The notes under the pieces are model-generated. The model made no database searches and was not told where the DNA came from. It saw only the letters and a program-made list of their open reading frames with translations. 64,000 nt of DNA from Alphaproteobacteria bacterium (lineage in GTDB: Bacteria; Pseudomonadota; Alphaproteobacteria; CAAHEQ01; UBA3637): assembly GCA_045614025.1 (NCBI GenBank), contig JAZLCE010000027.1, forward strand, positions 63,033 through 127,032, read 5' to 3'. Position numbers and translations under genes: made by a program. This document shows positions 42,634 to 56,172 of the stretch, one piece after another (position 1 is the stretch's first letter; the number at the start of each line of letters is the position of its first letter).

Positions 42634-43884
42634 ATGCTATTTTCAAAAAAACCACCTATGCCAACAAACTTTAAATTAGGGACTCAGGAAAAAACCTTAA
42701 ATCAACCTTTTGAAAATGAACCTAAAATTCAACAACCAAAACCGTCTTTTCAAATGCCTGAACCTCCTGCATTTAAAGAGCCAATGTTTATGCCTCAAGC
42801 ACCTAAATTTTCTCAAGATAATTCATCTTCTCAATCTTTTACCCCCCCCATTGAAACAACGGTTATTAAAGAAGAAACAACCCCTCACGAAGAAATAAAT
42901 GAAAATGGGCAAAAAGTTTTTAAAGCAAAATCCATTAAAGATGTTGATTTTTCAGACATTTGGTTCACGCCTGAAAAAATTGCTTATATCCGAGATAAAA
43001 ACACAAAATTTGCCCTCATTCCATTTGAAACAGAAGATTTAGATGATTTCTTAAAAATTTTGGAACAAGGGTATCAAGGATCCGCAAGCTATGCCATTCG
43101 TTTTTTAAATGAAGCATATCGTGTTGAACGCGTTATCACTTCAACAGGAACTCAATATAATTGCCGTAAAATGCCGGCCACAACACCAAGTATCTATAAA
43201 TTAGGATTACCTGAGCCAATTGTAAAATATATGACTTCTTTAGCAACCGAATCAGGTCTTATTTTACTTGCAGGACCAACTGGTATGGGGAAAACAACAA
43301 CAGTTTCAGCTTTAGTTAAAGAGTTTTTGGAAACACATGGTGGCTTTTTATACACCATTGAAGATCCACCTGAAATGCCTCTTGATGGTCTTTATCATGC
43401 AAGAAATGGAGGCCTAGGGTTATGCAAACAAAGCTCTGTTGAAAATGAAAGATGGGGAGATGCATTAAAATCAGCTCTACGTTCACGTCCAAGATATATC
43501 CTTGTTGGGGAAATCAGAACGCCTGAAGTTGCCTCTCAAGCTTTACGGGCCGCTACATCTGGTCACCTTGTTCTTTCAACCATTCATGCCAATAGTGTTG
43601 AAGATGCATTAAATTCCGTTATTAAATATGCTTCTGGCGCCGGGTTGGATGAAAAACTTGTTTGTGACTTATTAGCACGCGGGATTTTAGGTGTTGTACA
43701 TCAACAATTAGAAGGAACAACAAATTTAAGACCCATTATTCATACAGCATTTGCAAATCCAAATCCTTTAGTTGCTTGCCAAATGCGAATGACTATCAGA
43801 GAAGGAAAAATCTCACTCGCTACATTTATGGAAGCCCAAAATACAAGAATATTTCAAGGGCGACCAATGTTTAGAGAACTATAA
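42634..43884 (+). CDS. PilT/VirB11-class secretion ATPase (orphan) with a proline-rich N-terminal extension
   Basis: Walker A GPTGMGKTT, Asp box EDPPE, Walker B RYILVGEIRTPE, His box GHLVLSTIHA. The first ~90 aa are Pro/Gln-rich and low complexity. Confidence 0.75.
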   Translation: MLFSKKPPMPTNFKLGTQEKTLNQPFENEPKIQQPKPSFQMPEPPAFKEPMFMPQAPKFSQDNSSSQSFTPPIETTVIKEETTPHEEINENGQKVFKAKSIKDVDFSDIWFTPEKIAYIRDKNTKFALIPFETEDLDDFLKILEQGYQGSASYAIRFLNEAYRVERVITSTGTQYNCRKMPATTPSIYKLGLPEPIVKYMTSLATESGLILLAGPTGMGKTTTVSALVKEFLETHGGFLYTIEDPPEMPLDGLYHARNGGLGLCKQSSVENERWGDALKSALRSRPRYILVGEIRTPEVASQALRAATSGHLVLSTIHANSVEDALNSVIKYASGAGLDEKLVCDLLARGILGVVHQQLEGTTNLRPIIHTAFANPNPLVACQMRMTIREGKISLATFMEAQNTRIFQGRPMFREL

Positions 43885-49623: not shown

Positions 49624-49644
49624 TCCGTTTAACTTAAAAAGAAA

Positions 49645-49680
49645 AACCCATCTGTTTTCAGATGGGTTTTCTTTTGGTTT
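49645..49680. terminator. Bidirectional terminator between serS and the convergent CC-repeat operon
   Basis: 10-bp stem AACCCATCTG/CAGATGGGTT with loop TTTT, and T-runs on both strands. Confidence 0.6.
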
Positions 49681-49738: not shown

Positions 49739-51208
49739 TTATCGTCCACCTAACGGACCAGCATATCCCTTATCTCCTTCTTCTGGTAGGCCATCAGCAA
49801 CACAAGCACCATTAATTTTTTTGCCCCATGTGATGCAACAAAATGAATTATACATCCATTTACCACCAGCATTTTCGCAACAAGCTGCTGTTCTTGAACC
49901 AGTCATAATATCCATTGATCCTCTACAGCAAGAAGCGCTCGATTCTTCTTGATCTGGATCGCCAGGAGCACTACTGCTACTAGTAACCCATTCACCATAT
50001 GCATGTTCGCAACAAGCTTGAGTTGGTTTACCCTTTATATTTCTCGGAGAAGTTGGGTCTTCGCAACATTCCCCTTCACCACCATTACCGCCATCTGCAT
50101 AATTAGAGCTTGGGCAACAACCATAATAATCTCCATCAGGATACTCTTTATCATCACTGTTTTGACAGCAAGCCCCACCTATAGCAAACTTTCCAGTTTC
50201 ACAACAATCCGTATCGCCATAATTGCCGTTTTGTGGATTCACAAATTTTTTAATATAAACATTACCCTTACAACAAGCCCCTGATTTTAATTCAGAACCA
50301 TCGTCCAGCGTTACTTTTTTCACATAACCATCTTCATCTGATGCACAACAAGCATCAATATCTCCGAGATCTGATACTACTTTAGGGCTTTTACAGCAAT
50401 CTTCTATCACATCTGTTTCACTTGAATCATTATAGGCGCGCCCATAAACAGTTCCTCCTATACAACAACCAAGATCGGCCACCCCTGAATCAAAAGCTTT
50501 GTTATAGGCGTTTCCTCCATCCCCTACGCAACAATTAGAGGTTACTTTTGCGCCTGAATAAGTGATTACAACTTTACCATCTAGAGTCATCGATTGATAC
50601 ATTTGATTTGCCATTGCCGTGCCATCTTTTTCGGTTGCACAGCAATCGCCATTTTCCCATTTACCCTCTGCCGCCTTGCAACATTCCTTTGAATGGGCTT
50701 TTTTATCAAAATCATAAGCTTGAAAGCAACAGCGGTCTGAGTGTTCTTCCCCACCTTGCGCCCGGCAACATCTGGCATTATTCGACCCAGTTGACCAATA
50801 TTTCCAACTATCTGCAATGCAACAAATTCCACCGTTTCCTGGCATATTTTGAGTATCTGCAGCTCCTTCTAATGGCCAAAAGACATAGTTCCCAGGATCC
50901 TTTCCTTTTGCTATTTGACTTGTGCAACAATCTTCTGTTACAACTCCACCGCGAATTGGAATACCCTCTGGAGATAAAGCATATGCCGCGGTAACATTAT
51001 TGATTGAACAACAAGTGCCTCCACGCCATTCAAAGTTTTCTTCATTTCCCCAACCACCTTTGCAACAATCTTCAGAGGTTGAAATTTTAGACATGTAACA
51101 ACAATTTGGATTTAATACGGCTCCACCTCCACCTGACTGAGACATTACTTCGGTTGAAATCACCAAGGCGCCACTCAAAGATAAAATCATTCCCCATTTT
51201 TTCATCAT
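49739..51208 (-). CDS. Secreted vicinal-cysteine (CC-doublet) repeat protein B. Novel; no family recognised.
   Basis: Start trimmed to the ATG at 51208 (MMKKWGMILSLSGALVISTEVMS signal peptide, preceded by a G8 RBS-like tract). The mature ~465 aa contain about 22 Cys-Cys doublets spaced 8-35 residues apart and one single Cys. Gly/Asp/Asn-rich. Confidence 0.7.
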   Translation of the reverse strand: MMKKWGMILSLSGALVISTEVMSQSGGGGAVLNPNCCYMSKISTSEDCCKGGWGNEENFEWRGGTCCSINNVTAAYALSPEGIPIRGGVVTEDCCTSQIAKGKDPGNYVFWPLEGAADTQNMPGNGGICCIADSWKYWSTGSNNARCCRAQGGEEHSDRCCFQAYDFDKKAHSKECCKAAEGKWENGDCCATEKDGTAMANQMYQSMTLDGKVVITYSGAKVTSNCCVGDGGNAYNKAFDSGVADLGCCIGGTVYGRAYNDSSETDVIEDCCKSPKVVSDLGDIDACCASDEDGYVKKVTLDDGSELKSGACCKGNVYIKKFVNPQNGNYGDTDCCETGKFAIGGACCQNSDDKEYPDGDYYGCCPSSNYADGGNGGEGECCEDPTSPRNIKGKPTQACCEHAYGEWVTSSSSAPGDPDQEESSASCCRGSMDIMTGSRTAACCENAGGKWMYNSFCCITWGKKINGACVADGLPEEGDKGYAGPLGGR

Positions 51209-51214
51209 TTTTAT

Positions 51215-51222
51215 CCCCCCCC
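51215..51222 (-). repeat. Homopolymeric G8 tract (C8 on + strand) in the ribosome-binding spacer of CC-repeat gene B
   Basis: Read directly. It lies 6 nt upstream of the ATG at 51208 and 2 nt downstream of the stop of the preceding gene. Unusual in this AT-rich genome. Confidence 0.85.
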
Positions 51223-51224
51223 TT

Positions 51225-52484
51225 TTAATTGCGCTCTCTGGATGCGCTTTGATTCCGGCGTGTATTTCGCGCATTTCTTGAACTTGTTGTTCTTGTTCTA
51301 GATGAAGATCGGGATGATGCTCTGGAAGAGGATCTTGAAGAAGACCTGCCATCATATAATCCCCTAATAGGAACAACATCATAAACATGGTTCACCCCTT
51401 CTTCAATCTCATACGTATTAAAAGAGTTTACAACATATGTGTGCTTTACCAATTCTTCAACATACCGATTTGCTTTTTGATAGGTAAGGCAAAGCGCTCT
51501 GGTTAAGGGGGTTTTATTCATTGAAAGTGAGCGAACATTTCCACCTTTTTGTTGAATAATTTGTTCTAGCCCATCCATCATTTCCCTTAAAGCGGCTGGA
51601 GCATTCAATAATTGAGCTGCGCGAGCTGATAAGGATGGATTAATATCCTCTGGACTTGGTTGATTAAAAAAGGTGAGACTTATTGTACGATTATTGGCAA
51701 AAGATGTCGTAACAATTCCTTTACCTCCACAATCAGAACCAATGCCTAAAATTCCTGTTTCTAATAAACCTTCATAAGAATAAAGTGGATGCCCCAAAGT
51801 GCGATAAAGCGAAGCTTGTTGCTCTGTATAATTGGATAAATCCAATGCATCCGTATGTTGTCCAAAAAGAATCCATTTTGTTGGTATAAATTTACCCATT
51901 AATTGAGCTGGGTCCACCTCAGGATCGCGCCCCAAATCAACCAATTGCATGCCATAAAAATAATGAAAGTTTTCATTTAAAATAGCAAGAACATCTTTTA
52001 AAAATTCTTGATCAGGTTCATCCATCACTTTATTTCCGCGGTTCACTGCTCTTAATTCAGAAGCCGATAATTCAATCCATGGCCGATCCGTTTGCGGGTT
52101 AATGGCGGGTTCTTTTCGATATTCCCATGCTTGATCATCCCCAAAAAAGCGCGTGCGATATAAAAAGATATGCCCCCCTTTTTCATAAAGACCAATGCCA
52201 TCTTCATCATTCACATAAAGCAAGCTTTCGCCTGACATCAAATATCGATAATTGTTTCTATTTTGCTCTATCCATTCTTTAAAAACAGGATGAAGGGTGG
52301 CATAGTTATCGGCTTCTCGATAAAGCCTATAAATCGAAGTAGGGTTTTTGCGTTTGGATCCAAACCTTCCACTTGAAACGCGTTCACTTGGCGTATATTC
52401 GCAAGCAAGCAAATCCCTTGATTCCAAGGTGGAAGCGCAAACGCCCCACATAACCGATAATAACAATAAGTCTTTATATCTCAT
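51225..52484 (-). CDS. Secreted protein with a C-terminal Arg/Ser-rich (RS-repeat) tail. Unknown function.
   Basis: Signal peptide MRYKDLLLLSVMWGVCAST. The last ~40 aa read GRSSSRSSSRASSRSSSRTRTTSSRNARNTRRNQSASRERN. No recognised catalytic motifs. Confidence 0.65.
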   Translation of the reverse strand: MRYKDLLLLSVMWGVCASTLESRDLLACEYTPSERVSSGRFGSKRKNPTSIYRLYREADNYATLHPVFKEWIEQNRNNYRYLMSGESLLYVNDEDGIGLYEKGGHIFLYRTRFFGDDQAWEYRKEPAINPQTDRPWIELSASELRAVNRGNKVMDEPDQEFLKDVLAILNENFHYFYGMQLVDLGRDPEVDPAQLMGKFIPTKWILFGQHTDALDLSNYTEQQASLYRTLGHPLYSYEGLLETGILGIGSDCGGKGIVTTSFANNRTISLTFFNQPSPEDINPSLSARAAQLLNAPAALREMMDGLEQIIQQKGGNVRSLSMNKTPLTRALCLTYQKANRYVEELVKHTYVVNSFNTYEIEEGVNHVYDVVPIRGLYDGRSSSRSSSRASSRSSSRTRTTSSRNARNTRRNQSASRERN

Positions 52485-52517
52485 TTATCCTCACTTTCAC
52501 TTTGCTTTTTTAAGCAA

Positions 52518-55337
52518 TTATCCATTCCCCCCAACAACGCCTTCTTCAGGACAGGAGCCAACATATGTGCCATAACCATTTTCAACACCTGGAGGACAAT
52601 CATATGTTCTTAGCGTTTTTCTTCGCTCAACTTCAACAATGCCACCAGGTTTTGAGCTTCCAGGAATATGCGTATATTTAAAGCATTCTTTTGCTGGCTT
52701 ATTTTTCAAACCTCTGGGTATGAAGCAATCATCCCCATAAGCAAGCCCACTTGGATTACTTGGACAACAAGCACAAGATATTGTTCCATTAGCCAAAACA
52801 CCTTCCTCTTGACAGCAATTTCCATTAATCTCTTTACATACTGTGGTATCACATTCCATTTCTTGCGTGTCTGGAATCACTTCTTCTTCTGTCTTAATTG
52901 TATCTATATACGTGCAATAATCATAGCATTTATCTGGGTTTGGTTGGGGCCCCTCTGTGCACTTTTTACAACTTGTGCATTTTGAACCATCCCAATATAT
53001 GCCTTTTCCACCAGCTTGCATGGATGCATAATCACAACAAATTTTACTTTCCGTTCCATCAATAGCTTGCCCCGTTTTTAAATCACAACACATACTTTCA
53101 GTTGTGTTATATGAGATACCCGTTGGATAACAAGTTGTTCCAGAGGTCCCAGTTGGGCACTGACCCGCCTGAGCATACCCTTGAATCGTTGTTCCCACCA
53201 AAACAAACGTTCCTTTGGAGCGAATAAGTGGATTTGTTGTATTATAATAAAGAGGAGATTCGCAACATTCTTTATAATTATTTTTCACATCACCTTCTGT
53301 TGCGCTCATAGAAGTACCCTCTAATGTTTGGCAACAATATTCTGGCGAAGGCATCCCGCTCCAATCTCTAATCTTTTGATCATAAGTTAACGCAGTTCCA
53401 GAACGTTCAAGCTCTTTATAATCCACACAACAGTTGCGATCTGGCTCTGGAACACTGGTAGGCGCAGTCGCAATAATTCCACATTCTTGTGAAATATTTT
53501 GTCCAACTTGATAATGTGGGCCATGAACATAAGAAAGTTTTCGTCCATTCATATCCGTTGCCACATTACAGCATTCTTGAGAATATTTAAGCACACCACC
53601 TTCATAAGCACAAGCAGATGTTTTTAAACGTTTTTGAAGCCCTTCCATTTTATAACAGCAATCTGTTGTTGGCGTTCCCATAATATCCAATGGAGCAGCC
53701 CCTGTAATCGGCGTTCCCAATGTTGGAACATTAGAAACACCTTCCCATGGACATTGCTCAGTTGTTGAAGCCGTGCGAAACGCCAGCACATCATTTTGCG
53801 AACAACAAAGCGCTTTTCCAGTTTCTGATGTAAGATTTGTACCAGCAACTTGGCCATCGGCTTCTGCCCAATATCCTCCTCCTGCAATGCAACACTGATC
53901 GACCGTTACTTCACTTGTTTGAGATGAACTTCCCAATGGACAGTTTTGATATTGGGTGGATGTTGATCCTTTTGATGTAGCAATTGTCCACGGCAATACT
54001 GCCCCCGTGATGGATGAAATGTGACATGGCACGGTAATAGATGTTGTAGGAGGTTCACCCGGGCAACAAGATGCATCCATCTCACCAGCCCAGTTGCCGC
54101 CAATATAAATCTCTTCTTCCGAAGTGATAGCGTCCGTATCAAAAACCCACGTTTCTTCATAAACCGGTATTCCATTTTCATCTACAACTGGTTTACCTGT
54201 GGCATCTGTTTTAGCAGTGATACGAACAGAATAACGCCCATCTGGGCCCACTTTACAACGAGGTGTATTTTCAATATTTTCAACCAGTTTACAACATTTT
54301 GGCCCCCCTGGAATGAAAACAACATCATCACCCAACAATTCACAACATTCTTGCGATTCAATGTGTCCACCACTTTCTTCAGTATATGGCGTACCAGGAA
54401 CACAAGTCATATCCGGTGTTGGCAGTAAATCAATCCCTTGTTTTTGACCGAAATAAAGAACCAATGTTTGAAGTGGAATCATTTTCTTTGATCCATCCTC
54501 ATTTTTTTCACCCGTATCTACCCTTGCCCCATAGGCCATACAAGCCAAACTTTTTTTATTTTCGCAAACAGAACCTGCCCCTGGAGCGGTTTCTGGATTA
54601 TCTTCATCTTCAAGATTTCTGAGATATTTTTGCGCTAAAGAAATATTTCCTTTAGTTGGGTCAATCATGGTGCAAACTTTATCAATTTGTTCTTTTGTTG
54701 CAATGCCTTCTTCCCCACCCCGTTCTGGGTTTGCATATTTATTTTCTTTTGAAATATTCAAAAAGTCTGGCGTAAAAGGATCCATCGGCGATCCACTCTG
54801 ACTTTGAAGCGCAACATATGCATAATCAAAACCTAAATCGCTTTTGTATAATAACTTTTCACATAACGTATAGGAAAGCCCTGTAACACGAACAGTCCAG
54901 TTATTTTCATCTTCAGCACGAACCCAAGCTGGTGCATCAAGCAAGGTATCAAACGATTCATGTTCGCGCACCTCAACCATCTTGGATCTATCGCCACCAA
55001 CAAGCTTGCCCTCTTCGTCAATTAACCCAGCATCAAAGGCCGATTCTTCCGAACGATACCGCACCCTTGAAACAACATCTCTGATTGGAATAATATATGG
55101 AACATAGTCATCAGCAATACCAACTGTTTGAAATCCATAATGAAGAGGAATATCCCATGAACGACCACCTGCAACTAAAACACTAAGCTGATCCAATGTT
55201 TCAGCTTCTTGATATAAACGCATTGCGTAGCCATAACCAACAATTCCACCAATTGATAAAACCCCCGCCAAGGCCAAAACGCCAAGCATTTCAGCCATTG
55301 TTCGTCCGTTCTCCATCCCAATTTTTTCTTTTTGCAT
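52518..55337 (-). CDS. Large membrane-anchored/secreted Cys-rich protein A with CC doublets and a pilin-like N-terminus. Novel.
   Basis: ATG at 55337 with AGGGGA RBS is preferred over the upstream TTG at 55364. N-terminus MQKEKIGMENG/RTMAEMLGVLALAGVLSIGGIVGY has a Gly before a hydrophobic helix and Glu at +5. The ~900-aa Gly/Thr/Ser-rich body has 14 or more CC doublets plus about 30 single Cys. Confidence 0.65.
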   Translation of the reverse strand: MQKEKIGMENGRTMAEMLGVLALAGVLSIGGIVGYGYAMRLYQEAETLDQLSVLVAGGRSWDIPLHYGFQTVGIADDYVPYIIPIRDVVSRVRYRSEESAFDAGLIDEEGKLVGGDRSKMVEVREHESFDTLLDAPAWVRAEDENNWTVRVTGLSYTLCEKLLYKSDLGFDYAYVALQSQSGSPMDPFTPDFLNISKENKYANPERGGEEGIATKEQIDKVCTMIDPTKGNISLAQKYLRNLEDEDNPETAPGAGSVCENKKSLACMAYGARVDTGEKNEDGSKKMIPLQTLVLYFGQKQGIDLLPTPDMTCVPGTPYTEESGGHIESQECCELLGDDVVFIPGGPKCCKLVENIENTPRCKVGPDGRYSVRITAKTDATGKPVVDENGIPVYEETWVFDTDAITSEEEIYIGGNWAGEMDASCCPGEPPTTSITVPCHISSITGAVLPWTIATSKGSTSTQYQNCPLGSSSQTSEVTVDQCCIAGGGYWAEADGQVAGTNLTSETGKALCCSQNDVLAFRTASTTEQCPWEGVSNVPTLGTPITGAAPLDIMGTPTTDCCYKMEGLQKRLKTSACAYEGGVLKYSQECCNVATDMNGRKLSYVHGPHYQVGQNISQECGIIATAPTSVPEPDRNCCVDYKELERSGTALTYDQKIRDWSGMPSPEYCCQTLEGTSMSATEGDVKNNYKECCESPLYYNTTNPLIRSKGTFVLVGTTIQGYAQAGQCPTGTSGTTCYPTGISYNTTESMCCDLKTGQAIDGTESKICCDYASMQAGGKGIYWDGSKCTSCKKCTEGPQPNPDKCYDYCTYIDTIKTEEEVIPDTQEMECDTTVCKEINGNCCQEEGVLANGTISCACCPSNPSGLAYGDDCFIPRGLKNKPAKECFKYTHIPGSSKPGGIVEVERRKTLRTYDCPPGVENGYGTYVGSCPEEGVVGGNG

Positions 55338-55394
55338 CGGACATCCCCTTTTTTCATATGTCAAAAAGAAGGGTTAACAACCCCGTATACTTTC

Positions 55395-55423
55395 AGAATA
55401 CCAAAAAATACGCATATCGTCAA
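55395..55423 (-). promoter_or_regulatory. Candidate sigma70 promoter of the CC-repeat operon (TTGACG-17-TATTCT on minus strand)
   Basis: -35 at 55423-55418 and -10 at 55400-55395 (minus strand), giving a leader of about 50 nt to the ATG at 55337. Confidence 0.4.
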
Positions 55424-55470
55424 TAACTTTTCTGTTTTTACATAATTTTTTAACAAATAAAAAATGATTT

Positions 55471-56172
55471 TTAATCAACAGATAACCAAGCCCATGCTCC
55501 CAAAATGGCAATAGATGCTGTTTCAGCCCTTAAAATGGTATCCCCCAAATGAAGGGGCACAACATTTTTTTGACATAAAATAAAATCAACTTCATCTGGT
55601 GTAAAACCACCTTCAGGACCAATAATAAATGCTGGATTTTTCACTTCAAATAACGTTTTTGATCCTGTTTTACCGCGCTCGGTTAAAAAAACAGGCGTGA
55701 CCTCTTTTGAAAATTTTAAAAACAAATCTTTTAAAAGAATCGGTTCAAAAATTTCAGGCACATCCAACCTTTCTGATTGTTCAGCCGCCTCTTGTATAAT
55801 TAAATGAGCTCTTTCAATATTAAATCCACGCACAACAGTTCGATTTGTTATAACAGGATAAATTTTGGTGACCCCCAATTCCGTTGCCTTTTCTAACACA
55901 AGGTCCATATTTTCTTTTTTAATCACAGAGGGGCATAAAATAAGCTCTGCGCGCTTTGAAAATTCTTTTGTTTTTTCTAATACTTGCAATAAACAATTTT
56001 TTTTCTTTACATTGCTTACTTTTGCTTTAAATTCGCCATCAACCGAATTAAAAAGCAAAATTTCAGAACCTTCTTTTTGGCGCATCACATGAACTAAATA
56101 ATGCGCTTGTTTTTCATCCAAAGAAAGTTCCTGCCCTGTGGATAACTTTTCTTTTACAAATAATCTAATCAT
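55471..56172 (-). CDS. rsmE: 16S rRNA (uracil1498-N3)-methyltransferase RsmE
   Basis: 233 aa. N-terminal PUA-like region and a C-terminal SPOUT domain. Start overlaps the stop of the upstream gene (ATGA). Confidence 0.75.
   Translation of the reverse strand: MIRLFVKEKLSTGQELSLDEKQAHYLVHVMRQKEGSEILLFNSVDGEFKAKVSNVKKKNCLLQVLEKTKEFSKRAELILCPSVIKKENMDLVLEKATELGVTKIYPVITNRTVVRGFNIERAHLIIQEAAEQSERLDVPEIFEPILLKDLFLKFSKEVTPVFLTERGKTGSKTLFEVKNPAFIIGPEGGFTPDEVDFILCQKNVVPLHLGDTILRAETASIAILGAWAWLSVD

Follow-up and report, generated by a model that had tools for sequence, protein, structure and literature searches.

A candidate giant modular type IVb pilin with a cysteine-rich C-terminal module

In the 64-kb stretch of DNA analyzed here (the window), one gene, here called gene A, encodes a protein that is likely to be a giant modular type IVb pilin, and probably a low-abundance, adhesin-type subunit of the pilus tip that has the products of two neighboring genes, B and C, as partners. 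The architecture supported by our analyses is a pilin module (about residues 1 to 300) followed by a Cys-rich module (residues 311 to 939). An earlier note on this DNA had described a Cys-rich protein of ~940 aa with a class III prepilin signal; the protein has 939 aa and 53 Cys, and the signal is now backed by homology to a pilin family, by a fold match, by conservation of the register, and by the peptidases and pilus operons of related genomes. The same note had pictured the signal as tethering or displaying a Cys-rich ectodomain. The signal holds, but the ectodomain is not all that follows it, since a full pilin domain precedes the Cys-rich module. No principle is overturned by this architecture, which fits the known concept of modular pilins.

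Gene A and the N terminus of its product

Gene A occupies the open reading frame (ORF) at 52518..55364 on the minus strand, and translation from the ATG at 55337 gives the 939-aa protein A; NCBI protein P0001 (939 aa) is identical to this product. Whether the ATG or a TTG at 55364 is the start had been left to be checked. The ATG and a GGGGA Shine-Dalgarno sequence are invariant in the five orthologous loci compared, and in the orthologue L084 the ATG is preceded by an in-frame TAA; thus, the TTG is not a conserved start. A block, TTTGGTATTCTGAAAGTATA, at the promoter-like site upstream of gene A is conserved in orthologous loci. A 5'-UTR hairpin was also considered and was rejected, as distant orthologues give no consensus structure. 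The features of gene A are the following:

55395..55423, minus strand: candidate promoter-like site upstream of gene A, TTGACG-17-TATTCT with TG extension, from a consensus scan
55344..55348, minus strand: Shine-Dalgarno sequence GGGGA, 6 nt before the ATG at 55337, read from the sequence
55305..55337, minus strand: leader peptide MQKEKIGMENG, residues 1 to 11, ending in the invariant Gly-1
55224..55304, minus strand: RTMAE (Glu+5) and hydrophobic alpha1-N segment, residues 12 to 38, the predicted mature N terminus
54438..55169, minus strand: remaining pilin module, residues 57 to 300, comprising the end of helix alpha1 and a globular type IVb pilin-like domain
52521..54407, minus strand: Cys-rich C-terminal module, residues 311 to 939, with 49 Cys and 14 vicinal CC pairs

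Protein A begins MQKEKIGMENG/RTMAEMLGVLALAGVLSIGGIVGYGYA, where the slash marks the predicted cleavage site. The leader is polar, 11 aa long, and of net charge 0. After Gly11 come R12, T13, M14, A15, and E16, which puts Glu at +5, and the hydrophobic stretch that follows runs for 22 residues, from M17 to A38. The earlier note had read the N terminus in exactly this way, as a leader whose last residue is Gly, with Glu at +5 and a hydrophobic helix of ~20 residues. G-1 and E+5 are the residues required for prepilin cleavage and assembly. Translated in six frames, the window contains one match to a loose class III pattern (G-x4-E and then a hydrophobic run); the number expected by chance is 0.035 per window by Markov resampling and 0.02 with shuffled real ORFs.

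Protein A has two of the features by which class III signals are recognized, a short hydrophilic leader ending in Gly and a Glu+5 followed by ~21 mostly hydrophobic residues. It lacks a third, a hydrophobic or aromatic +1 residue (Phe, Met, Leu, or Val), which is N-methylated in such pilins, and has Arg there instead, as do all the orthologues. The leaders of type IVb pilins are about 13 to 30 aa long and usually basic, and that of protein A, at 11 aa with no net charge, is not of this kind. To our knowledge, Arg has not been described at +1 of mature type IV pilins, where the known residues are Phe, Met, Leu, Val, Ser, and Trp. We agree with the earlier note that Arg+1 and the nonbasic leader are atypical; both are family-wide, and Arg+1 is present in 138 of the 138 paralogues described below. 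Searches with PF07963 (E up to 10) and TIGR02532 (E up to 1) left protein A unmatched, and nothing in Pfam or NCBIfam matched the whole protein, its N-terminal 70 aa, or its C-terminal 629 aa.

The G...E+5 register, on whose presence in homologues the proposed signal depended, is kept in all orthologues. Among the 11 of these, which are 30 to 79% identical to protein A, Gly-1, Arg+1, Met+3, and Glu+5 are invariant; in the 12 full-length members of the family (identity down to 30%), so are L18 and V20 together with G11, R12, M14, and E16. When the set was extended to 20 large relatives, one partial protein had Asp at +5.

A pilin module and its family

In a sample of 1.18 Mb from gut and rumen Alphaproteobacteria MAGs, 138 ORFs (median length, 216 aa) have the consensus N terminus G/RSMIEMLGVLAIIGVLSVGGIAGYSKAM, and at least 51 such paralogues are present in one MAG. 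Within G/RSM[IV]EML, residues G-1, R+1, S+2, M+3, and E+5 are each found in 100% of the 138. The leaders are mostly 7 to 12 aa long with a charge of 0 or +1, and some have about 25 to 30 aa; they are variable and always end in G. The contrast between variable leaders and near invariance at positions +1 to +28 is what cleavage of the leader would lead one to expect. The leader of protein A resembles those of the paralogues in being polar and in ending in [NS]G.

The paralogue profile matched solved pilins: BfpA (1zwt; E = 2.5e-14, over the globular domain), TcpA (8uhf; 3e-8), CofA (9iuf; 2.8e-6), and PilS (1q5f; 2.8e-4). Two Cys are invariant in the paralogues, as in a pilin D-region. Against PF07963 (N_methyl), the paralogues aligned in the correct register with 20.0 bits, under the cutoff of 21.2, and two of them, at 16.6 and 16.9 bits, passed TIGR02532 (cutoff, 16.3). 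NCBI labels the members of this family "hypothetical protein," and a literature search returned no paper containing the motif and nothing relevant for RF32 plus pili. The paralogues are a massively expanded, so far unannotated pilin family of low-GC gut and rumen Alphaproteobacteria.

As judged by profile comparison, the N-terminal ~184 residues of protein A are homologous to this lineage-specific type IVb pilin family. The hhalign program aligned residues 6 to 184 with the paralogue profile at 99.45% probability (E = 4e-22); the alignment places the N terminus in the same register as the paralogue consensus RSMIEMLGVLAIIGVLSVGG and pairs WTVRVTGLSYTLCEKL of protein A with the pilin motif F.I...GLS..C..L. 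The pilin module of protein A, which is common to P0013-P0025, contains the motif WTVRVTGLSYTLC(159)EKL, a conserved Cys159, and an invariant Cys222. Searched directly against PDB, the profile of A-type proteins had as its best match the geopilin precursor, with a nonsignificant E value of 0.086; the N terminus of the precursor, G/FTLIELL, aligns with that of protein A, a correspondence of register only. Homology to the globular domain of type IVb pilins therefore reaches protein A through the hhalign match to the paralogues and through Foldseek, not through a direct sequence search.

The AF2 model of residues 1 to 320 (pLDDT, 71.6; pTM, 0.75) has a helix at residues 30 to 56 and an alpha/beta domain, in keeping with the pilin arrangement, in which an alpha1 helix of about 50 residues packs on a globular domain with a beta-sheet. 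The pLDDT is 70 to 93 over residues 61 to 300, and the N-terminal 34 residues are of low confidence. In a Foldseek search of PDB with this model, the top 15 matches were all type IVb pilins, CofA being the first (probability, 0.99), at modest E values (best, 2.6e-3; TM, 0.34/0.47). That the predicted fold of residues 1 to 320 matches type IVb pilins is supported by these results. Full-length AF2 modeling of 12 orthologues gave a mean pLDDT of 49.8 and an unusable N terminus, and a PDB search with the full-length model returned weak pilin matches and none for the Cys-rich module.

All 14 vicinal CC pairs of protein A fall within residues 331 to 858, and they are invariant or nearly so in the orthologues. 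The Cys-rich module had no match in Pfam, NCBIfam, or PDB, and PF24748, the galaxin repeat, found nothing in residues 311 to 939 at E values up to 1.

Pilus genes and the A-B-C operon

The only pilus assembly gene in the window is the following:

42634..43884, plus strand: PilT-like ATPase (Pfam T2SSE)

Its best NCBIfam match is pilT_fam, at an E value of 1.5e-35 and below the cutoff of that family. With phmmer, it matched the PilT-like ATPase of a pilus operon (L025:11392-12357) at an E value of 4e-105. By sequence, it has its orthologue in related genomes, where a PilT-like ATPase closes the type IVb pilus operon, and this orthology provides a real link from the window to a pilus system. The earlier note was right that the ATPase is the sole pilus component in the window; its description as an orphan does not survive the orthology. 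Lineage-specific queries found no prepilin peptidase, platform protein, secretin, or ordinary pilin in the window, in keeping with the earlier remark that no prepilin peptidase or pilus assembly gene is near gene A.

Three related MAGs (L025, L008, and L016) have an operon of the order TcpQ-secretin-PilO-PilP-like-ATPase-T2SSF-pilins-PilT-like ATPase; the operon of L025 also encodes a pilin-domain protein that lacks a class III signal and has a plain membrane anchor. Paralogues in the related MAGs lie inside R64/TCP-like pilus operons and near genes for A24 prepilin peptidases, and in L052 and L044 the Peptidase_A24 genes are 2.7 to 6 kb from pilin genes. Pilins, operon, and peptidase are all three present in MAG JAFUSA01. 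The A24 peptidase has 428 close homologues, several of which are named "prepilin peptidase [Alphaproteobacteria bacterium]."

Gene A itself belongs to a different operon, A-B-C, which is flanked by rsmE and serS; the rest of this operon is as follows:

51225..52484, minus strand: gene B, 419 aa, with a signal-like hydrophobic segment at the N terminus and a conserved tail rich in Arg and Ser at the C terminus
49739..51208, minus strand: gene C, a 489-aa predicted secreted protein, galaxin-like, with signal peptide MMKKWGMILSLSGALVISTEVMSQ and 22 vicinal CC pairs
49642..49671, no strand assigned: terminator-like bidirectional hairpin separating gene C from the convergent serS, with a 13-bp stem and a T run on both strands

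Gene B starts 33 nt past the end of gene A, and it follows gene A, in synteny, in L078, L080, L081, L084, and L086. Protein B has 49 homologues, none with a Pfam domain, and its profile found no match in PDB. Against Pfam Galaxin_repeat (PF24748; cutoff, 28), the L084 orthologue of protein C scored 57 bits and protein C of the window a subthreshold 18.7 bits. Vicinal CC pairs recur every 12 to 76 residues in both A and C; homology between the Cys-rich module of A and protein C was considered and rejected (E = 0.16). Genes A, B, and C have stayed together in two different genomic neighborhoods, and a third has retained A plus a CC-rich protein. The gene after the distant orthologue P0012 was rejected as a homologue of B; it encodes a CC-rich protein.

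Processing, tip location, and known systems

We propose that the prepilin of protein A is inserted in the inner membrane and that the A24 peptidase of the lineage would cut it between Gly11 and Arg12. The type IVb assembly machinery would then take up the mature protein, of 928 aa and with an N-terminal Arg. Given its bulk, the mature protein may be placed at the pilus tip as a low-abundance subunit, where the disulfide-stapled Cys module could act as an adhesin or a docking platform. The cotranscribed, secreted protein B and galaxin-like protein C are probably its partners, paralleling the pairs TcpB-TcpF and CofB-CofJ; we infer both the tip location and the partnership from analogy and synteny.

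An unlikely alternative is that protein A is a bitopic periplasmic protein held in the inner membrane by its N-terminal helix, an uncleaved signal anchor, and is never processed or polymerized, its pilin domain having been exapted; the pilin ancestry would be real and nonfunctional. Gene A does lie away from any pilus gene cluster, its N terminus has drifted from the family consensus and lost the N_methyl and TIGR02532 matches, and the anchored pilin-domain protein of the L025 operon shows that the lineage makes such proteins. However, G-1 and E+5 have stayed invariant at 30 to 79% identity while their neighbors vary, which a mere anchor would not require, and the leader has retained the polar, [NS]G-ended pattern of the family.

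We consider it quite improbable that protein A, although cleaved, is a pseudopilin-like piston that mainly exports B and C through a secretin, in the manner of type II secretion or of TcpB-TcpF, and is not an adhesin. The strict conservation of the A-B-C operon and the Sec-type signal peptides of both B and C would suit such a role, and there is precedent in the secretion of TcpF and CofJ, which depends on type IVb pili and passes through a minor pilin, as described in three papers (PMC9565799, PMC10120004, and PMC6048534). Against it, neither B nor C resembles TcpF, CofJ, or any solved structure, and a Cys-rich module of 630 residues exceeds what a docking site needs.

Cleavage by signal peptidase I after GYA is unlikely, and we give almost no credence to the soluble periplasmic or secreted Cys-rich protein that an ordinary Sec signal peptide cut after G-Y-A38 would yield: small residues do stand at -3 and -1 (G36 and A38), as S-K-A does at the same place in the paralogues, and a cut after G-Y-A38 is formally possible. 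An ordinary Sec signal, however, would have a basic n-region, an h-region of 7 to 15 residues, and an A-x-A site, and in protein A the n-region has a charge of 0 and the 22-residue hydrophobic stretch contains a conserved Glu. The helix also runs uninterrupted into pilin alpha1-C in alignment with BfpA, TcpA, and CofA, and the cut would part the conserved helix from the pilin domain, an outcome seen in no pilin.

The preferred reading of protein A as a giant tip pilin can be set against several known systems. The type IVb major pilins (BfpA bundlin, TcpA, CofA, and PilS of Salmonella Typhi) resemble protein A in having Gly-1, Glu+5, a non-Phe +1 residue, a long alpha1 helix, two conserved Cys, and an alpha/beta globular domain, and they have in common with it the strand-turn-helix motif F/W-x-[VI]-x-[VL]-x-G-L-[ST]-x-x-x-C. 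They differ in that their leaders are usually longer and basic, whereas protein A has an uncharged 11-aa leader and Arg+1; in addition, protein A is about four times larger through its 630-residue module, and its gene is away from the assembly genes.

The large type IVb minor pilins CofB (CFA/III of enterotoxigenic Escherichia coli [ETEC]) and TcpB (the toxin-coregulated pilus [TCP] of Vibrio cholerae) extend, like protein A, beyond a pilin module into additional C-terminal domains. It is established that such pilins are located at the pilus tip, bind a co-encoded secreted protein, and act with it, CofJ and TcpF in these cases (PMC8179133, PMC6048534, and PMC9565799). PDB profile and structure searches detected no sequence similarity of CofB or TcpB to protein A. 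CofB and TcpB are roughly half the size of protein A and are encoded inside the pilus operon, whereas gene A is in a separate operon; their extra domains are of beta-repeat and beta-sandwich types, and that of protein A is the CC-rich module.

Modular type IV pilins are themselves established, for example, Streptococcus sanguinis PilB with a vWA module and PilC with a lectin module (PMC8179133). The principle is the same as in protein A, a small pilin module with a bulky functional module grafted onto it, except that the grafted module of protein A matches no known domain. The "most extreme case" in that survey has 860 residues (PMC8179133), compared with 939 in protein A, and the survey could not find protein A because it relied on IPR012902, whose PF07963 and TIGR02532 signatures protein A fails.

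The loci of the related genomes have a set of genes like that of the thin pilus (PilL-V) of the IncI1 plasmid R64, namely, TcpQ/PilL-like, PilN-type secretin, PAP_PilO, PilP-like, ATPase, T2SSF, pilins, and A24 peptidase. In R64, too, the +1 residue of PilS is unusual (Trp). The related loci differ from R64, which has the adhesin minor pilin PilV, in being chromosomal and in the spread of dozens of pilin genes across the genome; they showed no shufflon, and PilV is unrelated in sequence to protein A. Galaxin-like di-cysteine repeat proteins (PF24748) have recurring vicinal CC pairs, as do A and C, but the module of A is unmatched by that family. Galaxins are skeletal-matrix and symbiosis proteins of animals.

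A broader proposal, which we offer tentatively and regard as somewhat doubtful, is that the low-GC gut and rumen Alphaproteobacteria have a distinct branch of type IVb pili in which all subunits mature to an N-terminal Arg in place of N-methyl-Phe or Met, with a hugely diversified pilin repertoire (at least 51 genes in one genome) and with the ~930-residue protein A at the tip, its vicinal-disulfide module docking C and B. If true, an N-terminal Arg on every subunit would mean a different chemistry of the filament core, for example, Arg1-Glu5 pairing, and a tip protein docking B and C would be a commensal counterpart, built of unrelated parts, of the TcpB-TcpF and CofB-CofJ colonization devices.

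The analysis has identified an unannotated pilin family that has an invariant Arg+1 and dozens of copies per genome and that standard signatures miss or barely reach. Protein A is among the largest pilin-type proteins so far and carries a domain built on vicinal cysteine pairs. Were its processing and tip display confirmed, the substrate range of prepilin peptidases would widen, signature-based surveys would prove to undercount modular pilins, and a module for adhesion or secretion would become a testable candidate for the host association of these bacteria. In enteric pathogens, type IV pili are the principal organelles of colonization; in uncultured gut commensals they are, as far as we know, almost unstudied. 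The source bacterium of protein A is an uncultured gut alphaproteobacterium.

Start codon and N-terminus of protein A

The window holds an ORF at 52518..55364(-) that encodes protein A, the Cys-rich product of gene A, for which the earlier note had weighed two starts, TTG 55364 and ATG 55337. The NCBI entry P0001 is 939 aa long and identical to protein A, which places the start at ATG 55337. A Shine-Dalgarno sequence (GGGGA) lies 6 nt 5' of this ATG, and both are invariant in an alignment of the upstream regions of five orthologous loci. The TTG is not a conserved start, because the orthologue in locus L084 has an in-frame TAA upstream of its gene A start.

The N-terminus reads MQKEKIGMENG-RTMAE-MLGVLALAGVLSIGGIVGYGYA: an uncharged 11-aa leader whose last residue is Gly (Gly11, position -1), then Arg12 at +1, Glu at +5, and a run of 22 hydrophobic residues. 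The class III-like signal that had been proposed (short polar leader ending in Gly, Glu at +5, hydrophobic helix) can thus be read in the ORF. Translated in all six frames, the window contains a single match to a loose class III pattern, where chance would give 0.02 to 0.035. Among 5.8 billion proteins there were 11 full-length homologues (30 to 79% identity). M1, G11, R12, M14, E16, L18, and V20 are invariant in the protein A alignment, as are many CC pairs; since G11 and E16 are among them, the G...E+5 register, whose loss in homologues would have refuted the reading of the earlier note, is kept.

A type IVb pilin family and its domain in protein A

With one genome scanned for each species, more than 524 stretches were seen to encode sequences related to the first ~60 residues of protein A, nearly all in MAGs named Alphaproteobacteria, with human gut, rumen, and rabbit as sources. 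In 1.18 Mb of loci fetched from related MAGs, 138 ORFs (the paralogues; median length, 216 aa) carry G|RSM[IV]EMLGVLAIIGVLSVGGIAGYSKAM after variable leaders of mostly 7 to 12 aa; G-1, R+1, S+2, M+3, and E+5 are each found in 138/138. The fetched loci of a single MAG, JAFUSA01, already contain at least 51 distinct copies. In NCBI, the label "hypothetical protein" is given to the paralogues and to the orthologues of protein A alike. Pfam N_methyl aligned in the correct register with a typical paralogue, scoring 20.0 bits against a cut-off of 21.2, and two paralogues passed TIGR02532 (16.6 and 16.9 bits; cut-off, 16.3). A profile of 40 paralogues (A2), which has two invariant Cys, matched the solved type IVb pilins BfpA (1zwt; E=2.5e-14, over the globular domain), TcpA (8uhf; 3e-8), CofA (9iuf; 2.8e-6), and S. 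Typhi PilS (2.8e-4). By sequence comparison, this is a family of type IVb pilins.

The at least 51 pilin genes (GRSMIEML) come from one rumen MAG, RGIG4773 (L005-L071, contigs JAFUSA01..., e.g., L023:476-20319). Often they form clusters that use both strands, and their 5' ends are nearly identical, a layout that could support recombination or inversion-based variation. Some alphaproteobacterial pilin/peptidase contigs (L002, L022, L026, L034, L052, and L072) are binned as Eubacteriales, Bacteroidaceae, or [Ruminococcus] gnavus, probably through bin contamination or mislabelling.

Profile-profile comparison of the protein A orthologues with the paralogues gave a 99.45% probability (E=4e-22) over residues 6-184, and WTVRVTGLSYTLC159EKL of protein A aligned with the pilin motif corresponding to TcpA FAISVDGLTQAQCKTL. 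For residues 1-320, AF2 run on 20 sequences gave a model with a pLDDT of 71.6 (70-93 in the globular part) and a pTM of 0.75. The best 15 Foldseek matches of this model in the PDB were all type IVb pilins (CofA, TcpA, PilS), with modest E-values and TM-scores, CofA being the best (probability 0.99, E=2.6e-3). Protein A alone reached no pilin HMM (Pfam including N_methyl, NCBIfam including TIGR02532), and searching the PDB directly with its profile gave nothing significant; it therefore lies outside the curated signatures, and the case for a pilin rests on transitive homology and fold. Together, the profiles and the model indicate that protein A contains a whole type IVb pilin domain. The module at 61-~345 is common to other large proteins (518-941 aa), all with G|R[ST]M.E[ML]L and CC-rich tails.

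Further large pilin-type proteins of 384-511 aa with the same N-terminus (L013:10754-12136, L040:2090-3244, L057:1516-3051) imply that Cys-rich grafts on pilins recur in the lineage; one gave weak matches to a Myxococcus Cys-rich repeat and to the TraA outer-membrane exchange protein. The MAG of the protein A orthologue L001 has a second A-type N-terminus (L003:1466-1636) where a short contig ends; its +2 codon is an in-frame stop (GR*MIETLAVL...), so that it is a pseudogene or else reflects faulty assembly.

The Cys-rich module and the A-B-C operon

Protein A has 53 Cys, among them 14 vicinal CC pairs, and every one of these pairs lies within residues 331-858. Only 15 proteins among 1.84 billion cluster representatives matched residues 61-939. 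Residues 311-939 had no match in Pfam, NCBIfam, or the PDB, and the module has no detectable homology to protein C. The operon is as follows.

55395-55423 (-), promoter-like site, at one flank
52518..55337 (-), gene A, 939 aa
33 nt after gene A (-), gene B, 419 aa, signal-like N-terminus, conserved Arg/Ser-rich tail
49739..51208 (-), 16 nt after gene B, gene C, 489 aa, Sec-type signal peptide, 22 CC pairs
49642-49671, terminator-like hairpin, at the other flank

The mechanical gene C ORF, 49739-51388 (-), has 60 extra upstream codons and overlaps gene B; the orthologues' starts place the real one at MMKKW, 51208. Pfam Galaxin_repeat was passed by a C orthologue (57 bits), the window's C being sub-threshold. 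None of the 49 homologues of protein B had a domain, and protein B had no PDB match. Its very basic C-terminus (51225-51350 (-); RSSSRSSSRASSRSSSRTRTTSSRNARNTRRNQSASRERN), kept in the family consensus, is odd on a protein bearing a signal peptide.

In four loci, rsmE and serS flank the syntenic triad, which is also found in another neighbourhood with a distant 847-aa A-type protein; in a third, the gene after A encodes a CC-rich protein of 369 aa. A small hairpin (GGGGTT-GTT-AACCCT) with a T run at 55370-55384 (-), between the promoter-like site and the gene A Shine-Dalgarno sequence, is kept with compensatory changes in the close orthologues L078 and L080; no consensus structure emerged when distant orthologues were compared. 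The operon's GC (window 50001-56000) is 0.39-0.41 versus a window average of ~0.34, which may reflect Gly/Cys/Thr/Pro-rich composition or foreign origin.

Pilus machinery and the possible role of protein A

The L025 operon encodes a TcpQ-like protein, a secretin, PAP_PilO, a PilP-like protein, a GspE-type ATPase, a T2SSF platform protein, two pilins, and a PilT-like ATPase; its pilin genes lie at the operon end, as in L008 and L016. Also within it, L025:9346-9969 encodes a 207-aa protein with a pilin-like globular motif (FDIIYKDLSRTQCVFLL), weak similarity to pilins, and a plain membrane anchor in place of a class III signal. In L052 and L044, Peptidase_A24 genes are found 2.7-6 kb away from pilin genes; close homologues of this peptidase number 428, and several of them bear the name prepilin peptidase of Alphaproteobacteria. 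A single MAG, JAFUSA01, combines pilins, the operon (L016), and a peptidase (L044). For such relatives, the refuting condition set by the earlier note, a genome with no prepilin peptidase, does not apply. Neither Peptidase_A24 nor pilus operon genes occur in the window, except an ATPase at 42634..43884, whose best NCBIfam family is pilT_fam. Previously called an orphan, it is the sole machinery component in the window and is orthologous to the operon's PilT-like ATPase (E=4e-105).

Protein A combines a class III-type N-terminus, a type IVb pilin domain, and a fused Cys-rich module within a conserved operon, and matching peptidases and pilus machines exist in the lineage. Every functional step after translation is one that we infer from established pilin biology (PMC8179133, PMC5207764, PMC6048534, and PMC9565799). 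An A24 peptidase would cleave at G11|R12, and a type IVb machine would extract the mature protein from the membrane. Because it is bulky, protein A would join the pilus as a rare, probably tip-located subunit. The disulfide-stapled module may have an adhesive or docking role, with B and C possibly its partners, as in TcpB-TcpF and CofB-CofJ. That the N-terminus instead stays as an uncleaved anchor is unlikely, that protein A is a secretion piston somewhat more so, and SPase I cleavage after GYA is highly improbable.

As a pilin subunit, protein A is of a known kind, a modular type IV pilin or large type IVb minor pilin. What is new is the Arg at +1, invariant through the whole pilin family; the grafted module on vicinal CC pairs, with its galaxin-like partner gene; and a pilin family, unannotated until now, that runs to dozens of copies per genome in gut commensals. 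To our knowledge, Arg at +1 is unusual for pilins, and the family's N-terminal motif was not found in the literature searched. The size is also new: 939 aa, whereas the largest modular pilin in a 2021 survey has 860 aa (PMC8179133).
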